Below are positions 6,014 to 15,939 of a stretch of DNA of 56,541 nucleotides, piece after piece. Under the pieces are notes generated by a model. That model did no database searches, was not told the DNA's origin, and saw nothing but the letters and a program-made list of their open reading frames with translations. The stretch is from Promethearchaeota archaeon. GTDB lineage: Archaea > Asgardarchaeota > Lokiarchaeia > Sigyniarchaeales > SOKP01. The DNA lies in contig JAHPZJ010000031.1 of assembly GCA_019058245.1 (NCBI GenBank), forward strand, positions 1-56,541, in the 5' to 3' direction. Position 1 is the first letter of the stretch. Every line of letters begins with the position of its first letter. The position numbers and the translations under genes are program-made.

Positions 6014-7441
6014 TTATGTAGTTATTTTCCATCTTGGTCCTTCTGCCCCATCCTCAATTTGAATACCAACTTCTCTTAATTTTTTTCTAATTTTATCACT
6101 TAATTCATAATTTTTTTCTTTTCTTGATTGTTCTCGAATATTAATTATTATCTCCATTAATTCATTTATTTTTTTATCATCAAAACCTTTCTTTTTAGTG
6201 AAATCAAGTCCTAGAACTCCAAGTAATTCAATAAGAGTATCTCTTGCTTTGTTAAGTATTTCTTTTTTATTATCTAGTGATGAATTAACTTGTTTTATAA
6301 ATTCATAGATTGCAGCAAAAGCTCTTGGAGTATTAAAATCATCATCCATTGCCTCCTCAAAACTACTTCTTACCTCTTTTATTGCTGATTTGAGTGTTTC
6401 ACTATTTCCACCAGAGGAATGTTCAATGTTATTCAAACAATTTCTAATTTTTTCAATATTACTTTTGGCATTTTCTATTACTTTTGGATTCCAATCCACC
6501 GCAGATCGATAATGACCAGAAACTAGGCCCATTCTTACCACAAGTCCTCCATGCTCATCTATTAATTCACGGGCAGTGACATAATTTCCAAGACTTTTAC
6601 TCATTTTCTGACCATTAAGAGTTATAAATTCTGCATGCATCCACCAATTAACAAATTTTTTACCTGTTGCGGCTTCAGATTGAGCAATTTCATTGGGATG
6701 ATGAGTAGGAATATGATCAATTCCCCCTCCGTGAATATCTAATGTTTCTCCTAAATATTTCATTCCCATAACAGAACATTCAAGATGCCATCCAGGATAG
6801 CCTTCTCCCCATGGAGAATTCCATCTCATAATGTGGATTTGATCTCCCTTGCGTGCATTTAACCATAAAGCGAAGTCATAATAATTTCTTTTTAGGGGAT
6901 CTTGAACCACACGTGCTTGTGCTTTTTCTTCATCAAGTTTTAATTTGGCAAGTTTTCCATAATCCTTAAATTTAAAAGTGTCATAGTACACATTTCCTTC
7001 GACTTCATAAGCGTAACCTTTTTCTAGTAAAATCTTAATGATTTCAATCATATCAGGAATTACTGCTGTCGCTCTAGGTGATATGTTTGGTCTTTGAATA
7101 TTTAAATTATCAATAACTTGCCAATATTCTTGAATTTGTTTATCAACAAGTTCCCAAGGATTTATGTTTTCCTCTCTTGCTCTTTTTTCTATCTTATCTT
7201 CACCTTGATCGGCATCATCAGTTAAATGACCTACATCAGTAAAATTTTGAACATGGAATACATCATAACCCTTGTATCGAAGGTATCTTACTACTACATC
7301 CCAAGAACTATAAGTTCTTGCGTTACCTATATGTACATCATCATACACAGTCTGCCCACAAGTATAAATTCTTACTCGGCCTTCCTCTATTGGTTTAAAT
7401 ACTTCCTTTTGCCGAGTCATTGTGTTATAGATTTTAAGCAT
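6014..7441 (-). CDS. cysS: Cysteinyl-tRNA synthetase
   Basis: YTCGQTVY, HIGN, GYPGWHLECS, DIHGGG, HHPNE, KMSKSLGN. Confidence 0.97.
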   Translation of the reverse strand: MLKIYNTMTRQKEVFKPIEEGRVRIYTCGQTVYDDVHIGNARTYSSWDVVVRYLRYKGYDVFHVQNFTDVGHLTDDADQGEDKIEKRAREENINPWELVDKQIQEYWQVIDNLNIQRPNISPRATAVIPDMIEIIKILLEKGYAYEVEGNVYYDTFKFKDYGKLAKLKLDEEKAQARVVQDPLKRNYYDFALWLNARKGDQIHIMRWNSPWGEGYPGWHLECSVMGMKYLGETLDIHGGGIDHIPTHHPNEIAQSEAATGKKFVNWWMHAEFITLNGQKMSKSLGNYVTARELIDEHGGLVVRMGLVSGHYRSAVDWNPKVIENAKSNIEKIRNCLNNIEHSSGGNSETLKSAIKEVRSSFEEAMDDDFNTPRAFAAIYEFIKQVNSSLDNKKEILNKARDTLIELLGVLGLDFTKKKGFDDKKINELMEIIINIREQSRKEKNYELSDKIRKKLREVGIQIEDGAEGPRWKITT

Positions 7442-7517: not shown

Positions 7518-10373
7518 CTAATTCTTCACTTCTATATGTGCTTTCACTATTTTATTTTCAATTTTCAGTTCTTTTACATCTTGTTCAGTTTCTAAATTGT
7601 GAATGATATTATCAGCTTGTATCATCTTCTTAATTTTTTCTTTATATTGTTCCAGAGCTTCTGAAATTTCTTTATCAGATATTTCTAAATATAAATCAAT
7701 TCGATTTCTGGTTGAGAGTTTCAATTTTTTTCTATAATTATTAAAATTTCTAATAAGATTTCTTGCAATTCCTTCTAACCTTAATGATGGTGTAATTTTG
7801 GTATCTAGTTCTACTATTAATTTCGAGTCTTCTGGCATTTCAATAGTCACCTTTCTCACATTTATAGCTTCTGCAATTATACTTAAATATTGTTCTTCAA
7901 GATCTACTCCTTTTAAGATAACCTCATTTAAAGCTTGTCTAACTGGAATTTTAGCAGTATCTCTTAATTCTAAGGACTTTTTGACTATTTCCCGTGCTAA
8001 TTCCATATTTTTTAGAACTTTTTTATCAATTAATTTATTATCAAATTCAGGCCAAAGCTCTAAATGAACAGACTCTAAATTTACAATTCCTCTTTCTCTA
8101 AATTTTTGATATATTAATTCCGAAATAAATGGTGTTAAAGGAGCTATTATCTTTGACAAATTTTTTAGAACATACGACAATGTATTCATTGCTGATCTTT
8201 TTTCATTTATATTTTCACTCTTAAATCGATTTCTACTGTTTTTAATGTACCATGTAGAAAGGTCTTCTATGAATCTGAATAATAACCTACTAACTTCTGC
8301 TGTATCATAATCACCTAATAACAGTGTTGTATCCCTTAAAAGACTATTCAGTAAACTTACAATCCATCGATCTAAAATATTGTCTGAAGTTGTATTATTT
8401 ACAGGTATATTTTGCAATTTAACTAAAGAATAGAACTTTAGAACATTTATCAACAATAAGTTGAATCTACGGTAGACTTGCTTTACTATCTCTTCTTTAA
8501 AATTTAAATCTTGCGCCCTCATTAACTGAGATGACAATAGATACATTCTTAACGCATCAGCTCCATATTTTTTAATTATTTGGTTTGGATCTGGGAAATT
8601 TCTTCTAGATTTTGACATCTTTGTTCCATCTTCAGCAAGTATATTACCATTTACTACAACATTTTTGAACGGAATTTCATCAAATAATAACACAGCTACC
8701 ACATGCATATAATAAAACCATGCTCTAACCTGCCCAATATACTCAGAAACAAAATCGCATGGAAAATTATGCTTAAACCATTCCATATTCTCAAAGGGAT
8801 AATGTTTAGCAGCATATGGCATTGATCCTGATTCCAACCAACAATCGAATACCTCAGGTATACGAGTCATTTTTTTACCGCAATTTGAACATTGAAGATG
8901 AATTTTATCGACTATATGTCTATGTAGATCCAGATCATCAGGAACTTCTTCTATAGCATTCTCCTGTAATTCTTTAACTGAACCAATGACTTTAATTTGC
9001 TTGCACTCTTCACATTCCCAAATGGGCATAGCAGTAGCCCAAAATCGATTTCTTGAAATACACCAGTCAGGAGCACTTTTCATAATATTTTGATATCGTC
9101 TTGAAATTTCTTTAGGATACCAGTTGATTTTTTCATTAGTTTCCAAAAGTCTTGGTTTTATTTTTTGGATATCAATAAACCACGCATCAAGAGCGTTATA
9201 TATTAAAGGTGTATCGCATCTATAACAAAATGGATAGGAATGAGTGTAATCTTCTACATTAAATAAAAGATTCCGTCTGTTTAAATCCTCTAAAACCTCT
9301 TTGTCTATTTCTTTAAACCACAAACCTCTCCATTCTTTCGGACCGCTAACCAGATCACCATGTTCATCAAGATGTTGAATTATAGGCAAATCATACTTTT
9401 TAATCATTTCATAATCAAATTCTCCATATATTGCTAAGTGAATAATCCCTGTCCCTTCATCAGATAATACATTATCACCACCATCGAGAATGAAATACCC
9501 CTTTTTGTTAGTATTGGTAGAAATGTGATATAAGGGTTCATATTCTTTATTTAATAGAGTTTTTCCCTTAAATTCATCAATTATTTTATAGTCTTTTTTA
9601 ATTAGGTTTAGTTGATTCTTTATTAATACCAAATATTCTTCATTAAGCTTAATTTTTACATAATCTAGTTCACTATTTACAGCTAAAGCAACATTTCCTA
9701 TTAAGGTCCAGGGCGTTGTTGTCCACGCTAATAAAAATGTATCTTGTTCTCCTTTCAATTTGAATTTTGCAGTTATAGCTTGTTCATTAATATCTTTATA
9801 ACTGTTGTCCATTGAAATCTCAGAATTAGAGAGCGGTGTTTCACACCGAGGACAATAAAATAAAACTTTTTTTCCTCGATAAATAAAACCATCTGTATAA
9901 ATTTTCTTAAAAATATACCACACAGTCTCCATGTAGGAATTATCCATAGTTTTATAAGAATTATCAAATTCTATCCATTTTCCCATTCGATCAACTGTTT
10001 TTTTCCATTCATTTGTATACCAAAGCACTTTTGATCGACAAAATTCATTGAAATGTGATATACCCATTTCATTGATTTCATTCTTCTGCTTTAAATTGAG
10101 TTCTCTTTCACAAATACTTTCTATTGGCAATCCATGGCAATCCCAACCCCATCTTCTTTCACAGTGGTGGCCTTTCATTGTCCAATATCGTGGAAATACA
10201 TCTTTTGTTACAAAACTCAATATGTGACCATAATGGGGTAAACCAGTAGCAAATGGAGGTCCATCATAAAAAATATATGGATTATCTTTTGGTCTCTGCT
10301 CTACACTTTTCTTAAATATTTCATTTTCTTTCCAAAATCGTAGAAGTTCTACTTCTTTTTCATTATAAGTAAT
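7518..10373 (-). CDS. ileS: Isoleucyl-tRNA synthetase (type 2-like signature); start extended upstream of the ORF-track call
   Basis: WDCHGLP, WTTTPWTL, DWCISRNRFW, KMSKS. The frame stays open 51 codons upstream of 10220 and includes the HIGH motif FYDGPPFATGLPHYGH. It is bounded by an in-frame TAA, leaving ATT at 10373 (behind AAGGAAGGTG) as the most plausible start. Confidence 0.93.
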   Translation of the reverse strand: MTYNEKEVELLRFWKENEIFKKSVEQRPKDNPYIFYDGPPFATGLPHYGHILSFVTKDVFPRYWTMKGHHCERRWGWDCHGLPIESICERELNLKQKNEINEMGISHFNEFCRSKVLWYTNEWKKTVDRMGKWIEFDNSYKTMDNSYMETVWYIFKKIYTDGFIYRGKKVLFYCPRCETPLSNSEISMDNSYKDINEQAITAKFKLKGEQDTFLLAWTTTPWTLIGNVALAVNSELDYVKIKLNEEYLVLIKNQLNLIKKDYKIIDEFKGKTLLNKEYEPLYHISTNTNKKGYFILDGGDNVLSDEGTGIIHLAIYGEFDYEMIKKYDLPIIQHLDEHGDLVSGPKEWRGLWFKEIDKEVLEDLNRRNLLFNVEDYTHSYPFCYRCDTPLIYNALDAWFIDIQKIKPRLLETNEKINWYPKEISRRYQNIMKSAPDWCISRNRFWATAMPIWECEECKQIKVIGSVKELQENAIEEVPDDLDLHRHIVDKIHLQCSNCGKKMTRIPEVFDCWLESGSMPYAAKHYPFENMEWFKHNFPCDFVSEYIGQVRAWFYYMHVVAVLLFDEIPFKNVVVNGNILAEDGTKMSKSRRNFPDPNQIIKKYGADALRMYLLSSQLMRAQDLNFKEEIVKQVYRRFNLLLINVLKFYSLVKLQNIPVNNTTSDNILDRWIVSLLNSLLRDTTLLLGDYDTAEVSRLLFRFIEDLSTWYIKNSRNRFKSENINEKRSAMNTLSYVLKNLSKIIAPLTPFISELIYQKFRERGIVNLESVHLELWPEFDNKLIDKKVLKNMELAREIVKKSLELRDTAKIPVRQALNEVILKGVDLEEQYLSIIAEAINVRKVTIEMPEDSKLIVELDTKITPSLRLEGIARNLIRNFNNYRKKLKLSTRNRIDLYLEISDKEISEALEQYKEKIKKMIQADNIIHNLETEQDVKELKIENKIVKAHIEVKN

Positions 10374-10433
10374 TTTTTACACCTTCCTTATGATTTTTTT
10401 TATAAATATCAATTTACATGACTTAAAATTATC

Positions 10434-10636
10434 AAAAAAACATCTAATTTACAAATATTAGAGAATCTCATCATTCACATATTTTTTATCGGTGAAGCAG
10501 GATGTGGAATAAAAATTAGGAAAATTCACTTCACAAATAAATGAAATTAGATAATAATAATCGTGGATATGATCATAATACTATTTCTAATGAAACCTAA
10601 GAATTTAGTTACTATATTCATAACATCCACATCCAC
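10434..10636 (-). promoter_or_regulatory. Putative attenuator/leader RNA of the ileS-cysS unit
   Basis: Complementary segments GGATGTGGA (10634-10626) / TCCACATCC (10508-10500) and GTGAAG (10534-10529) / CTTCAC (10497-10492). U7 tract at 10440-10434. Confidence 0.5.
10547..10621 (-). CDS. Putative ileS leader peptide (24 aa, 9 Ile)
   Basis: ATG AAT ATA GTA ACT AAA TTC TTA GGT TTC ATT AGA AAT AGT ATT ATG ATC ATA TCC ACG ATT ATT ATT ATC TAA = MNIVTKFLGFIRNSIMIISTIIII*. SD-like GGATGTGG immediately upstream. Confidence 0.65.
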   Translation of the reverse strand: MNIVTKFLGFIRNSIMIISTIIII

Positions 10637-10699
10637 TTTATATTATGAATAAGGTGAAATGCTCTAAAAAATATTTCGGTATTTTATCAGTTTATTTTA

Positions 10700-12685
10700 T
10701 CATTTATCCAAAAATATATAATTATGAGCAATTTTTCTTTTATCCCTTCCTGCTAAGATATGGATATGCTTAATTGTTTTAAGAGATGAAAATTGATCTA
10801 ATGGAATATAGATTAATTCGCGACTTTTTATTCCCGCAAGTGAAAAAAAATACTTACGTGGAGGTTCTGGAGCTAAATATGCAATATAGCGTTCTTTTGA
10901 ATAAATAATAGCAGCCTTGAGAAGGCGTTCCGCTTTATTTTTAGTATCTCGATATTCATAATCCATAAACGAATCGAAAATAGAATTCATAAATATTGCA
11001 GGAAATATAGAAAGTAATCCTCCAACTTCTACGTGAGTAATACCCGGTCCAATTACATAATCACCAGGATTCGTAGAATAAAAAGCCATATCACTTTCTC
11101 TATCATGTTCTGCCCACCATGTTAATTTATACGGATATTTTTCAACTTCTCCATCATCAATATCAAAAATAACTATAATAGTATCAATTTTGCCTTGAAT
11201 TTGTTGGATATTTTGGACATAAATTTTTTTCTTAAATGCCCAATTCCGAATAGTTTCTTTAATAGCAATCCCATCCATTAGACTGGACTTGAATTCCTCA
11301 ATTTTAATTCTCTGATTTTTTAAATTTTTAATAGTTTTCTTTCTTATAAACGCAAAATAATCTTCTTCTATAATGTCTTCAGGAGGCCAAGAAACTGTGT
11401 AGTCTTTCCCCTCTTCCCATTTAGCTCTCCATTCTCCAGGATATTTTTCTTCAGGTCTTTTTTTTAATGGTACATCTTTTTCTTTACCATAAGTATAAGG
11501 ATGATGTCTACGTAATCTTATGTAGCGACCGCTTGGATCGTAACCCCCTTCTATACCCATTTTCAGTGTTTCATAATTATCACTCTCATCATTAAAAGGG
11601 TATTTAGTAGCTTTTTCCATAACTTTCCATGCATAATCATCATCTACTATATTCTTTGAACATGTTAATAAATGATATAAATTCGGCAATAATCTTTGAT
11701 CTGTTAATGAGAGATTCCTTGAATACTGAAATAATGTTTTTAATTTATGAAGATCTACAAATTCCTTGAATTCCTCTTCATATTCATATTTTGCTTTGAT
11801 TAAGATTGTTCTAATTTGTTCAATTTTATTATAAGAATTTAAAATATTATAAAGCTCATCAGGAGTTTCTATGTGGTCTAATGTTTCCTTCGAAAATTCA
11901 TCTCGAAATTTTAACCATTTGTATGTATGATATGGTAACTCTCTTAAAATAAATCTGGCATCAGAACTTTTAATATTATAAATTTTTACATACTTGTGAG
12001 GAACTAACTCCAAATCCACATCTTCGATTTTTTCTGGATTTTCTATATAATACTTTACATTTTCCCAATGCGCCATACCGATAATAAACAAAACCCTATG
12101 ATATATTGACATTAAATTTAAAAGGTGAGCTGCCATATACTTCTCTCTAAGAATATCTTTTTCTATGAAATTATATTTTTGGTCCACATTTTCTTGATTT
12201 TTAAGAAAATCCTCCAAATTTACTTTATCTCTTAGCATATCTTTTTCAGCTTTAAACACATCCTGAAAGTATTTTGCTATCTGTTCATAGAATTTAGGAA
12301 GTCCAATCTGATTAATAGCATAATCATCTGGTAATTTAAAGCTGGGAGGTAAATATTCGGAAACTGAAAGATCAATGAATTCAATTGGAATATTATGTTC
12401 AAGCCCAATTCGTATACTTTCCATAATTGAATCCCCAGGATCTACGGGGATATAATTCAACCTTTTTGGATTCAATGTATCCGCATAGCCAATTAAGGAT
12501 AGAAAAGGTAATCTTTCAATCGCTTCTGTTACCTCGTCTTGAACGTTATTAGGCAATTCTATAGCAATAACGTCTGGAAACACTTTAAATAATGCTGTAC
12601 GTACCAATTTCGCAAATTCTATCCGCGAATGAAATGTCGGAATAACATATAAGTTTTTATACTTTATATAAGGTTTTTTATCCAT
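10700..12685 (-). CDS. TraB/TIKI-fold-like protein associated with a MoxR ATPase
   Basis: PTFH, PDVIAIELP, IDL, RExYMA and IGMAHW motifs. C-terminal LMDGIAIKETIRNW resembles the motif preceding MoxR-partner VWA regions. Confidence 0.55.
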   Translation of the reverse strand: MDKKPYIKYKNLYVIPTFHSRIEFAKLVRTALFKVFPDVIAIELPNNVQDEVTEAIERLPFLSLIGYADTLNPKRLNYIPVDPGDSIMESIRIGLEHNIPIEFIDLSVSEYLPPSFKLPDDYAINQIGLPKFYEQIAKYFQDVFKAEKDMLRDKVNLEDFLKNQENVDQKYNFIEKDILREKYMAAHLLNLMSIYHRVLFIIGMAHWENVKYYIENPEKIEDVDLELVPHKYVKIYNIKSSDARFILRELPYHTYKWLKFRDEFSKETLDHIETPDELYNILNSYNKIEQIRTILIKAKYEYEEEFKEFVDLHKLKTLFQYSRNLSLTDQRLLPNLYHLLTCSKNIVDDDYAWKVMEKATKYPFNDESDNYETLKMGIEGGYDPSGRYIRLRRHHPYTYGKEKDVPLKKRPEEKYPGEWRAKWEEGKDYTVSWPPEDIIEEDYFAFIRKKTIKNLKNQRIKIEEFKSSLMDGIAIKETIRNWAFKKKIYVQNIQQIQGKIDTIIVIFDIDDGEVEKYPYKLTWWAEHDRESDMAFYSTNPGDYVIGPGITHVEVGGLLSIFPAIFMNSIFDSFMDYEYRDTKNKAERLLKAAIIYSKERYIAYLAPEPPRKYFFSLAGIKSRELIYIPLDQFSSLKTIKHIHILAGRDKRKIAHNYIFLDK

Positions 12686-12770
12686 TTTCTAAAAAAACAC
12701 TAAAAATTATTCTAAATTTATCGAGACATAATATCATGATAAAGATCCCCTCTAGCTTTATCTATTTTCT

Positions 12771-13205
12771 TTAGTACAATATCACACATTCTTTGAAGTC
12801 ATTAGATGAATTAATAGAATCTTCATCAATTGAACTTAAGTCTCCTGCAATACGTGTTATGTCTCTATGAAAATCGCCTTCGTCATTATCTCTCCTAAAT
12901 TTGGCTCTATTTATATAATCATGAATTAATGTTCCAAAATGTTTAACTTGATCCCAATCTGGAGTTTCAGAAAGACTATATTTCTTTATAATTTCTTCAA
13001 TTATGTCTACATAATAATTAATATTTTTTCGTCTTTCAATGATAAATCCATCTTTTCCTTGATAGAGAAATTGAGGATTATAAGATGGATCTAATCTTAT
13101 CTCCTTCCAAATCCGAAATTGTTCTGTTATTTCACCTTGCCATATGGCATGTTTTCCAGGATTTTCTTTCTCAAATTCTTCCATTAAAGGAGTTTTTTGT
13201 CTCAT
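12771..13205 (-). CDS. Hypothetical protein
   Basis: 144-aa ORF with N-terminal EFEKENPGKHAIWQGEITEQFRIWK motif. Confidence 0.6.
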   Translation of the reverse strand: MRQKTPLMEEFEKENPGKHAIWQGEITEQFRIWKEIRLDPSYNPQFLYQGKDGFIIERRKNINYYVDIIEEIIKKYSLSETPDWDQVKHFGTLIHDYINRAKFRRDNDEGDFHRDITRIAGDLSSIDEDSINSSNDFKECVILY

Positions 13206-13235
13206 TTTTTATATAAATAAACTTATTGTTGATAA

Positions 13236-14159
13236 TTAATACATATCCTCATCTTCATCATCTAAGTAAAAATCGTCATGACGAGATGCTTCCTTCAGCT
13301 TTTCATCTTGATATTTCTTGAAGTCCTCGGAACAATATCTTAATGCCCCGTCTTCTAAGATATGCTTCATAGAATCTTTAAATTCTTTTTCATTAAGGCG
13401 ACTTTTATTTTTCCCATTCAATTCTCTAGTTTTCATATAATATCTTACTATATTTATACCATCACGAACTACGTATGGTTGATCTTCAGAATGCGCATTT
13501 TCCAAGAATTCAGCACAATAATCCAATATTTCTTCTGATGCAAAGGGTAGATTGTATTTAAGAATCTCTAGCTCATCAGCTCTGTTAGGAAAATCCACAA
13601 ATATTTTTGGTTGAAGGCGCGATTGTATATATTCAGGAATCTCGTATGTGCTACTATCACTATTCATAGTAACACATAGTCGAAATTCAGGATGAGCATA
13701 AATTCTAATACCTGCAATAATACTCTCGACATAACGTCTTTTATCCATTAATGGTGCTAAAGAAGCCCAACTTTTCTCACTCATCCTATTCCCCTCATCT
13801 AACAAACATACCCCTCCCTTTATCATGGCTGATACTAAAGAACTCGCAACATAGGCTATTTTATTATCTGAAGCAATAACGGGGCTAATTAGCAAATCCT
13901 CAGGTCGAGTATCCATTGTACACTGAAATATATAGACGTCTTTTTGTAATCTTTTCCCTGCAGCATAAGCTAATGTTGTTTTTCCAATGCCAGGCTTTCC
14001 TAATATTCGAGGGTTGAGTGGTAAATCTTCCTTATCAACAATCATCCATGCTGCTTTCAATTGATTTATTAAATCATCGTTGCCAACCCAATCCATCTGA
14101 ACATTTGCAGGTTCAGATAAAATTAATTCAACTCCAGACAATTCTATTTTTTCAGGCAT
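13236..14159 (-). CDS. MoxR-family AAA+ ATPase
   Basis: Walker A GKPGIGKT, Walker B CLLDEGNR, HPEFRLCVTMN, sensor SRL. Confidence 0.88.
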   Translation of the reverse strand: MPEKIELSGVELILSEPANVQMDWVGNDDLINQLKAAWMIVDKEDLPLNPRILGKPGIGKTTLAYAAGKRLQKDVYIFQCTMDTRPEDLLISPVIASDNKIAYVASSLVSAMIKGGVCLLDEGNRMSEKSWASLAPLMDKRRYVESIIAGIRIYAHPEFRLCVTMNSDSSTYEIPEYIQSRLQPKIFVDFPNRADELEILKYNLPFASEEILDYCAEFLENAHSEDQPYVVRDGINIVRYYMKTRELNGKNKSRLNEKEFKDSMKHILEDGALRYCSEDFKKYQDEKLKEASRHDDFYLDDEDEDMY

Positions 14160-14338: not shown

Positions 14339-14890
14339 ATGTCAGGAGAACAGGAAAAATATATCGTTCTCAAATTTGTATTATTAGGGGATGCAGCTGT
14401 TGGAAAAACATCTCTGGTTGATAGGTATGCTCATCATAAATTTAAGGAGAATTATATTCCAACTTTAGGGGTCAACATTGTTGTTAAAGAATTAAAGCTT
14501 GAAGAAATAAATGCTCAAATTCGATTGGTACTTTGGGATATAGCTGGTCAAGAAAAATATGATATATCTAGGAAGATGTTCTTTCAAGGTGTTGTTGGGG
14601 CACTTCTAGTATATGATACAACTAGAGAAGATACCTTTACCAATATAGAATCGAAATGGCTTAAGGATTTAGAAGAATATTCAGAAAACGATCTTTCCTG
14701 TATTCTTATAGGAAATAAAACTGATTTAAATGATTCGAGATTAGTATCAACTGAAGATGGAAAAAATCTCGCTGAAAAAATAAAAGCAGCAGATTTTGTT
14801 GAAACAAGTGCAAAATACGGAGAAAATGTTGAAGAGGCATTCAAGAAATTAGTTATTAAAGTATTAATGAAATCAGGGGTTATATCTTAA
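14339..14890 (+). CDS. Rab/Ras-like small GTPase
   Basis: GDAAVGKT, PTLG, WDIAGQE, NKTD, ETSAK. Confidence 0.95.
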   Translation: MSGEQEKYIVLKFVLLGDAAVGKTSLVDRYAHHKFKENYIPTLGVNIVVKELKLEEINAQIRLVLWDIAGQEKYDISRKMFFQGVVGALLVYDTTREDTFTNIESKWLKDLEEYSENDLSCILIGNKTDLNDSRLVSTEDGKNLAEKIKAADFVETSAKYGENVEEAFKKLVIKVLMKSGVIS

Positions 14891-14926
14891 AAACCTTAAA
14901 TCTATTATAATAACTCTGGTGCTTAA

Positions 14927-15355
14927 TTGAAAACTATTGAAACTAAAATAAAGAGAGTAGTTGTAGGAAAAATTGAACCAGATGAGGATTTAGTTGATTC
15001 CATTATCAGTATAGTGAAAAAACATGATATTCAATCTGGATTCATCAAATGCATAGGGGCTTTAAAAACATTTACAATTGGTTTTTATATGATTGATTCA
15101 AGAGAATATAAAATGAAGACTTATAATGAAAACGTAGAACTGATTTCATGTATTGGAAACATTACTTATAAAGATGGAGAACCACTAATTCACATTCATG
15201 TTTCATTAGGAAGAAATGATTATAGTGTAATTGGAGGTCATTTAAATAAACCAAGTATAGTCTCTATTACTGGAGAAATAATAATATTTGAGTTTGATAC
15301 TAAAATTAATAGAGTTAACGATCCCCAATTTGAATTATCCTTATTGGAATTATAA
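14927..15355 (+). CDS. PPC-domain (DUF296) protein
   Basis: IGAL, ELISCIGNI, HIHVSLG, GGHL. Confidence 0.88.
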   Translation: MKTIETKIKRVVVGKIEPDEDLVDSIISIVKKHDIQSGFIKCIGALKTFTIGFYMIDSREYKMKTYNENVELISCIGNITYKDGEPLIHIHVSLGRNDYSVIGGHLNKPSIVSITGEIIIFEFDTKINRVNDPQFELSLLEL

Positions 15356-15372
15356 TAAAAGGGTATTAAAAA

Positions 15373-15939
15373 ATGGTTGAAAAAGATAAGAGGAAATGGG
15401 CAATTAAATTAACAGTATTAGGTGATCCTGCAGTAGGAAAAACCTCCTTAATTGATAAATATATTACAGATTCCTTTAAGGAAAATTATCAACCAACCTT
15501 AGGAGTCAATATCGTAACCAAGGATATACGGATTAAAGAAGACAATTCCGAAATCCGGCTACTTCTCTGGGATATTGCTGGACAGGATAAATATGAATTA
15601 ACACGTCAGATGTTTTTTCAAGGATGTTCAGGAACTCTCCTCGTTTATGATATGACAAGATATTTCACCTTTGAACGCGTGAAGACTAAATGGCTTGAGG
15701 ATTTTAAAAATTATGGTAGACCAGATGGAATTTATATGTTGATTGGAAACAAATCTGATTTAAAAAATTCTATCAAAGTGTCATCAGAAGAAGGTAAATC
15801 CCTATCTGAAGAGATTAATGCAGTAGAATTCGTTGAAACTTCCGCAAAATATGGTGAAAATGTTGAGAAAGCTTTTAGAACTTTAGTATCTCATGTATTG
15901 GGAAAGCTTGGTGTTAACATAGATTTTGAATTGCAATAA
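15373..15939 (+). CDS. Rab/Ras-like small GTPase
   Basis: GDPAVGKT, WDIAGQD, NKSD, ETSAK. Confidence 0.95.
   Translation: MVEKDKRKWAIKLTVLGDPAVGKTSLIDKYITDSFKENYQPTLGVNIVTKDIRIKEDNSEIRLLLWDIAGQDKYELTRQMFFQGCSGTLLVYDMTRYFTFERVKTKWLEDFKNYGRPDGIYMLIGNKSDLKNSIKVSSEEGKSLSEEINAVEFVETSAKYGENVEKAFRTLVSHVLGKLGVNIDFELQ

Follow-up and report, generated by a model that had tools for sequence, protein, structure and literature searches.

In bacteria, leader-peptide attenuation is a textbook mechanism, exemplified by thrL, ilvL, leuL, hisL and trpL of E. coli and by pheM-pheST. With these classical attenuators, and with the leaders of Streptomyces leuS and trpS, the Asgard archaeal element described here (ileL) shares a short ORF that has its own SD and cognate codons clustered before the stop, alternative helices of which the stalled ribosome would cover one strand, a downstream amino-acid or synthetase gene, and the serving of several amino acids within one genome. 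It differs from them in its archaeal host, its putative TATA promoter and the lack of a GC hairpin followed by a U-tract; in addition, the SD of the leader doubles as its switch strand, and its post-stop hairpin is long, with a loop of ~28 nt. The Rfam models of the Thr, Leu, His and Trp leaders and of the T-box (RF00230) gave no match, the search returning three unrelated sub-threshold hits at E values up to 10. Because ileL has no intrinsic terminator and matches no Rfam family, we did not file it as a classical attenuator.

Rho-dependent leaders such as tnaC of E. coli and mgtL of Salmonella share with ileL the absence of an intrinsic terminator, a pyrimidine-rich stretch after the leader peptide, and a design in which ribosome position would gate a termination factor; in ileL, unlike in these leaders, that factor would be the nuclease aCPSF1/FttA, a role that we infer. 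Rho-dependent leader control has also been proposed for mycobacterial cys leaders, and for tnaC the signal is free Trp, sensed in the exit tunnel. The T-boxes on ileS of Firmicutes and Actinobacteria regulate the same gene in response to the same signal, uncharged tRNA-Ile; however, they bind the tRNA directly and without a leader peptide, whereas ileL has a leader and no T-box match. In archaea, Xie and Reeve (2005) reportedly proposed Trp-codon-dependent translational effects in the trp system of M. thermautotrophicus, a possible partial precedent. TrpY of M. thermautotrophicus and Tar/TK0271 of T. kodakarensis, which control trp, likewise act on archaeal amino-acid genes, but as DNA-binding factors at initiation (PMC6737238). 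The actinobacterial LEU element (PMC1262725) has in common with ileL a leader ORF with a cognate run, crossing helices of the pseudoknot type and no terminator; its codon run pairs with the downstream SD, a pairing that we looked for in ileL and did not find. Similar-looking Streptomyces leaders showed no classical attenuator behavior upon mutation (PMC1262725). We found no archaeal leader-peptide attenuator in the literature searched, most subscription papers lying outside it. Reviewers call the support for Asgard archaeal ribosomes acting on nascent RNA poor (PMC13681488); conserved Asgard examples, if true, would be genetic evidence that their ribosomes do so.

The element lies on the minus strand of the window, the whole stretch of 56,541 nucleotides that was analyzed, and its leader comprises the following features.

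10663 to 10680, minus strand: putative BRE and TATA box of the leader transcript, with the position of the TATA-like word kept

10626 to 10636, minus strand: R1, the leader SD region GTGGATGTGGA and switch strand, with a core (GATGTGG) invariant in 39/39 homologs

10547 to 10621, minus strand: leader ORF ileL, 24 codons and TAA, open in 39/39 homologs

10550 to 10561, minus strand: ileL control codons ATT ATT ATT ATC

The ORF has the anatomy that an earlier, sequence-only reading had described: an ATG at 10621, a TAA ending at 10547, and 24 amino acids of which nine are Ile, seven of them within the last 10 codons and four in the ATT ATT ATT ATC run. All three Ile codon types are present. The first GTG of GTGGATGTGGA is in frame with ileL, and a start there would give 29 amino acids; the leader ATG is found at a single fixed offset in 38/39 homologs, the remaining one having GTG. 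Against the anti-SD of the genus, GAUCACCUCC, R1 forms a duplex averaging -6.2 kcal/mol. An unusual anti-SD behind R1 was rejected, as the 16S of the genus ends in the standard GAUCACCUCC. The TATA-like word begins 47-53 nt upstream of the leader ATG in 35/39 homologs, against a background of 14% for a wider, 16-nt range, and the leader transcript would start ~20 nt upstream of that ATG. To set the Ile content against chance, we counted ATG-started ORFs of 10-45 amino acids in the non-coding DNA of this genome (n = 4,109). Seven Ile in the last 10 codons occurred once, in ileL itself, in line with the rarity that the sequence-only reading called for, while six occurred in 7 and Ile runs of at least four in 13 of these ORFs. 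Thus, by this count, the Ile run taken by itself is weak evidence, and the case rests on position and conservation.

Downstream of the leader on the same strand lie two synthetase genes.

10380 to 10388, minus strand: ileS SD (AGGTG), at equal spacing from an ATT, ATA or ATG start

7518 to 10373, minus strand: ileS2, a 951-aa isoleucyl-tRNA synthetase of the IleRS2/DPANN-CPR type with an ATT start (TIGR00392)

6014 to 7441, minus strand: cysS, above the TIGR00435 cut-off, after a gap of 76 nt from ileS2

The ileS2 product scored 838.8 bits against TIGR00392 (cut-off 621.4) and fell below the cut-offs of both the MupA and the MupB family. It has a GLPHYGH-type signature and groups apart from native archaeal IleRS. 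The open frame opens at 10376, and the ATT at 10373 aligns with the ATG of relatives, 6 nt past AGGTG. The first canonical in-frame start, a TTG at 10220, falls downstream of the HIGH-type motif, and the GTG within the SD runs into an in-frame TAA. At the aligned position, the 30 homologs of the genus have ATT (16), ATG (10) or ATA (3), with one unclear. The most likely start, as judged from this alignment, is therefore AUU (window 10371-10373), and the ~174-nt gap between leader and ileS that had been reported is kept, at 173 nt, only because ileS2 is taken to begin at ATT 10373 and not at the canonical TTG. Owing to the ATT start, the gene call on record is shortened to 886 amino acids; gene callers shorten ileS2 and overlook the leaders entirely. 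Five further long ORFs of the genome appear SD-led at ATT, ATA or CTG. In one homolog (L092; G051:C4 near 1260), the start region is odd, with no clear aligned start and an in-frame stop just upstream, which reflects either an assembly error or a shifted start. The HYGH motif is replaced by QHGN in one subgroup and by HYGN in others (L006, L009, L012, L013, L035, L047 and L051); such replacement, in QHGN of both His, could affect catalysis or inhibitor sensitivity. The ileS-cysS link of the earlier reading holds within the genus, where cysS follows ileS2 in 16/16 genomes, but not in the sister genus (0/4). In this genus, cysS is probably cotranscribed with ileS2.

A leader of the ileL type was found upstream of all 39 orthologous ileS2 genes that we identified, in two genera of one Promethearchaeia family, so the expected conservation of an Ile-rich upstream ORF was borne out. 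The 39 leaders are 20-25 codons long, differ in length always by whole codons, and end in TAA, TGA or TAG. Across leader codons 2-14, they use 114 distinct position-codon states, none of which is a stop, against ~10 expected (P ~2e-5, a rough figure, as the homologs are non-independent kin); in contrast, spacer windows of 13 codons stay open in just 3-6/39. This codon-state test was used instead of stop counts in both alternative frames of the leader (39/39), which were discarded as evidence because ATG-A yields TGA trivially. The conservation of the open frame suggests that the leader is translated. The first 14 residues of the peptide drift freely, and 5-7 Ile are found among the last 10 codons in 38/39 homologs. 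Synonymous exchange among the Ile codons had been predicted; on the contrary, the core run ATT-ATT-ATT is fixed in 39/39. Within ileS itself, a single codon was used in 0/8 conserved-Ile columns and in 1/84 invariant-residue columns. Two factors could account for the invariant AUU run: mispairing of AUC repeats with R1, and the decoding of AUA by a different tRNA. ARAGORN called tRNA-Ile(AAT), which we judged to be artefacts of intron placement, as well as a tRNA-Ile(GAT). The spacing from leader to ileS2 ranges from 126 to 204 nt. The upstream neighbor gene is common to just 18/39 loci; thus, promoter and leader travel with ileS2.

The order contains two types of IleRS: a widespread native archaeal one of ~1,050-1,090 amino acids and the ~951-aa ileS2 type, to which it is 33-35% identical. 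We found ileS2 in 30/54 genomes of the genus and in 9/42 of one sister genus, while the other families of the order gave no hit. When we searched with a covariance model of the leader, it hit 30 genomes of the genus, once each, and these were exactly the ileS2 carriers (30/54); 16 of the 30 lay outside the training set of the model. The ileS2 genes of the sister genus were preceded by a leader in 9/9 cases. Native archaeal ileS genes had no upstream Ile leader with a tandem run. Two 5-Ile ORFs upstream of native ileS (L026 and L029) lack a run of three, and the one in L029 sits beneath an opposite-strand ORF. The leader had been expected across the ileS genes of Lokiarchaeia; it accompanies the ileS2 type and is absent before native ileS, so it is not general. 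Upstream of 58 ileS2 homologs from outside, we detected no ORF with at least five Ile in the last 10 codons. In a quick, midpoint-rooted tree, the ileS2 type formed a clade (support 100) within sequences of Woesearchaeota, Micrarchaeia and Iainarchaeum (98), and this DPANN group was nested in a wider CPR-rich group. The tree suggests that ileS2 was acquired horizontally from a DPANN-like source. As the leader is absent from the outside relatives of ileS2, such switches appear able to emerge anew in archaea. In the present assembly (76% complete), ileS2 is the sole ileS, while the closest relative has both native ileS and ileS2. Three carriers (L077, L087 and L092) were deposited as Hermodarchaeota or Thorarchaeota, but their coordinates coincide with those of genomes assigned to this genus; thus, the depositor labels do not widen the range of ileS2. 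One locus in an assembly of another genus (L074; G080:C163:2311-2532) has a different IleRS2 with a weak T-box match upstream (34 bits, E 1e-5, sub-gathering) and also a hairpin-U terminator, to be explained either by mis-binning of a bacterial contig or by recent transfer.

Around the control codons, four further strands make up a candidate RNA switch.

10563 to 10572, minus strand: R2, leader codons 17-20, partner of R1 in a conserved helix

10527 to 10540, minus strand: R3, 5' arm of the post-stop hairpin, pairing with R4b

10500 to 10508, minus strand: R4a, alternative partner of R1 by covariation, within the U/C-rich loop that R3:R4b closes

10486 to 10499, minus strand: R4b, 3' arm of the post-stop hairpin, without a directly adjacent U-tract

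R1 pairs with either R2, which a ribosome stalled at the Ile codons would cover, or R4a, which R3:R4b encloses in its loop. Across the 39 sequences, R1:R2 was 95.9% paired with three pairs changed on both sides, and the 14 pairs of R3:R4b were 92.6% paired with six such changes. Taken together, these two helices were 94% paired with nine double-changed pairs, which was reached in 0/500 shuffles, while controls slid along the alignment were 35-50% paired. The nine pairs of R1:R4a were 99.1% paired with two double changes (1/500 shuffles). In one homolog (L073), the same position is altered jointly in R1, R2 and R4a. In an equilibrium folding model without pseudoknots or kinetics, the mean occupancies of R1:R2, R1:R4a and R3:R4b over the 39 leaders were 0.42, 0.61 and 0.31 without a ribosome, and 0.00, 0.93 and 0.08 once the footprint of a ribosome stalled on the first AUU was masked. 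A second run gave a similar result. The shift stays partial, R1:R4a being already the stronger of the helices at equilibrium when no ribosome is present (-15.3 versus -13.3 kcal/mol); thus, a clean OFF state needs R1:R2 to form first, by kinetic trapping. R1:R4a and R3:R4b share no bases and might coexist as a pseudoknot, their exclusion being topological only. By covariation and the mask model, the leader has alternative helices that share R1, one of them with a strand beneath the stalled ribosome.

The features of ribosome sensing that the word attenuation implies, namely the ORF, the cognate codons and the alternative helices, are all found, but the hairpin and U-tract of a bacterial-type terminator are not: a terminator scan returned 0 sites. 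The nearest U-tract lies ~45 nt past the post-stop hairpin.

10425 to 10440, minus strand: U7 and U4 tracts in the A/U-rich spacer, a candidate aCPSF1/FttA signal or the TATA of an internal promoter

A spacer tract of at least U5 is found in 29/30 loci of the genus and 3/9 of the sister genus, against a background of 54%, and the hairpin loop retains its U/C-rich character only. TATA-like words occur 45-60 nt upstream of the ileS start in 24/39 homologs (background 14%) at scattered positions, making a second, basal promoter inside the spacer possible. The ileS SD lies ~100 nt past the post-stop hairpin, and its accessibility stayed flat when the stall was masked (0.38 versus 0.37), increasing in 0/39 homologs. 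Two candidate partners of this SD were rejected: R4a (duplex averaging -4.7 kcal/mol, z -0.55) and the control codons (-2.1, z +0.24) paired with it no better than shuffles. Thus, with accessibility unchanged and pairing at shuffle level, occlusion of the ileS SD is not supported. The genome encodes aCPSF1/FttA (TIGR03675, 879 bits, cut-off 580; G000:C27) and additional beta-CASP-like genes. U4 tracts serve as termination sites for the Lokiarchaeum ortholog of aCPSF1/FttA in M. maripaludis (PMC8716108), FttA termination has been described as Rho-analogous and likely to require uncoupling from translation (PMC13681488), and aCPSF1 is itself a nuclease, so that cleavage and termination are difficult to tell apart (PMC13675443).

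The cognate upstream ORFs anticipated at other amino-acid loci were found in the same genome.

G000:C10:40915-41016, plus strand: Leu leader before leuA-leuC (L061), 33 codons, 10 of the last 12 being Leu

G000:C6:120951-121004, minus strand: Trp-rich leader of 17 codons before a complete, trpD-led trp operon (L062)

G000:C6:112169-112246: second Trp-rich upstream ORF, before a gene of ~385 amino acids

G000:C30:122484-122591, plus strand, and 141160-141324, minus strand: four tandem Arg codons before argJ, and a His-rich ORF end before a his gene

The Leu-rich ORF was the top match of a function-blind scan covering 2,000 small ORFs that precede long ones, which also picked up the Trp-rich ORF of the trp operon; the Arg and His leaders come from a wider scan in which argJ and the his biosynthesis gene were named by their translations. 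Leu leaders precede leuA homologs in 30/30 cases, mix Leu codons, and have the layout of the Ile leader, with a helix between 5'UTR and leader (~15 bp) and a post-stop hairpin (~21 bp). Many of them contain the ATT-type triplet repeat of the Ile leader in another frame. U-tracts are missing from nearly all leuA spacers. Internal TATA words were found in 0/26 of these spacers, which argues that leuA depends on read-through from the leader. Trp-rich leaders precede trpD in several genera. The single leuS-like gene of the assembly has no Leu leader within ~450 nt, and in five genomes from other families of the order, trpD and leuA have no close orthologs. At each locus (Ile, Leu, Trp, His and Arg), the reading frame gives the cognate amino acid. 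The occurrence of Leu, Trp, His and Arg leaders alongside that for Ile argues for a system. We only tentatively extend this to genome-wide, ribosome-sensing leader-peptide attenuators for the five amino acids in this one Asgard family, with aCPSF1/FttA as effector in place of a bacterial hairpin-U terminator, in which the leader would have been added to an AUU-initiated ileS2 after its transfer.

On the strength of these comparisons, ileL is a real and conserved element, and it very probably senses Ile through the ribosome. We favor, with more reserve, an Ile-tRNA-sensing leader switch that would control ileS2, and cysS in this genus, most likely through conditional premature termination; with the same reserve, we lean toward termination linked to aCPSF1/FttA as the output. 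The absence of a hairpin with a U-tract and of SD occlusion, the presence of aCPSF1/FttA and the published U4 and Rho-like termination make a Rho-like scheme the best model. The leader would be translated on the nascent RNA. When charged tRNA-Ile is short, the ribosome would stall on AUU-AUU-AUU and cover R2; R1 would then capture the emerging R4a, R3:R4b would be hindered, and the polymerase would continue into ileS2. When Ile-tRNA is plentiful, the ribosome would complete the leader and depart, R1:R2 would form and hide the leader SD, and R3:R4b would form with its U/C-rich loop single-stranded. The A/U-rich spacer, free of ribosomes, might then be terminated or cleaved by aCPSF1/FttA, the least supported step. 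Stalling would thereby keep the ribosome and R1:R4a in place for read-through, and release would expose the RNA to aCPSF1/FttA. Through this circuit, inhibition of the native IleRS would also be expected to induce ileS2. The covariation-supported switch, the standing of ileS2 as a second, apparently acquired IleRS and its ATT start had been missed by the sequence-only reading.

The same ribosome sensor could act on RNA stability or processing, the stalled ribosome and R1:R4a protecting the transcript and the open state being cut or degraded after synthesis. Neither the Ile nor the Leu leaders have a terminator-like U-tract after the hairpin, and the nuclease nature of aCPSF1, whose cleavage and termination are hard to part (PMC13675443), and the presence of other beta-CASP-like genes would fit such an output. 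We nevertheless consider it unlikely, as the 5'-to-3' order of R1, R2, R3 and R4 fits cotranscriptional folding and the position of the U-tract is maintained in 29/30 loci of the genus. A translational output, in which ribosome loading on ileS would be changed by SD occlusion, re-initiation or coupling with help from the weak ATT start, appears slightly less likely again. The shuffle-level z scores of both R4a:SD (-0.55) and control codons:SD (+0.24), the SD accessibility that rises in 0/39, and the ~100 nt between hairpin and ileS SD all oppose it, even though R4a is anti-SD-like, the ATT or ATA starts of 19/30 homologs reveal that initiation at ileS2 is set low, and actinobacterial ileS T-boxes and LEU elements do act on the SD (PMC1262725).

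It is improbable that ileS is expressed mainly from its own spacer promoter, with the leader a separate small transcript or peptide or a minor control: the 24/39 TATA-like words (background 14%) and a U-tract that could terminate a stand-alone leader RNA would fit, but leader and ileS2 always occur together, 126-204 nt apart, the first 14 residues of the peptide drift freely, the internal TATA-like words are scattered, and the similarly built Leu leaders lack an internal TATA. More improbable still is recognition of the element, as RNA, by a regulatory protein or tRNA, with the AUU repeat not serving as codons. The invariance of the three ATT at the base level and the recurrence of the repeat out of frame in many Leu leaders would agree with such a site; however, the frame is cognate at each locus, start, stop and frame are conserved, Leu codons are mixed in the Leu leaders, and no T-box was matched. 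That the element is a chance product of AT-rich DNA is hardly credible. Ile codons are indeed AT-rich, and runs of at least four arise in 13/4,109 small ORFs, but this explanation is already refuted by conservation in 39/39 homologs, and the top Ile score in the genome, the covariation and the absence before the 58 outside homologs all speak against it. A natural leader of the kind favored here would also give a 270-nt cassette for probing translational gating of aCPSF1/FttA, a relative of the eukaryotic 3'-end nuclease CPSF73.

Beyond the leader, positions 10700-14159 of the window (minus strand) hold an upstream gene for a 661-aa protein with a weak TraB-like match, adjoining a MoxR-like AAA gene, and small Ras/Rab-like GTPase genes lie at 14339-15939.
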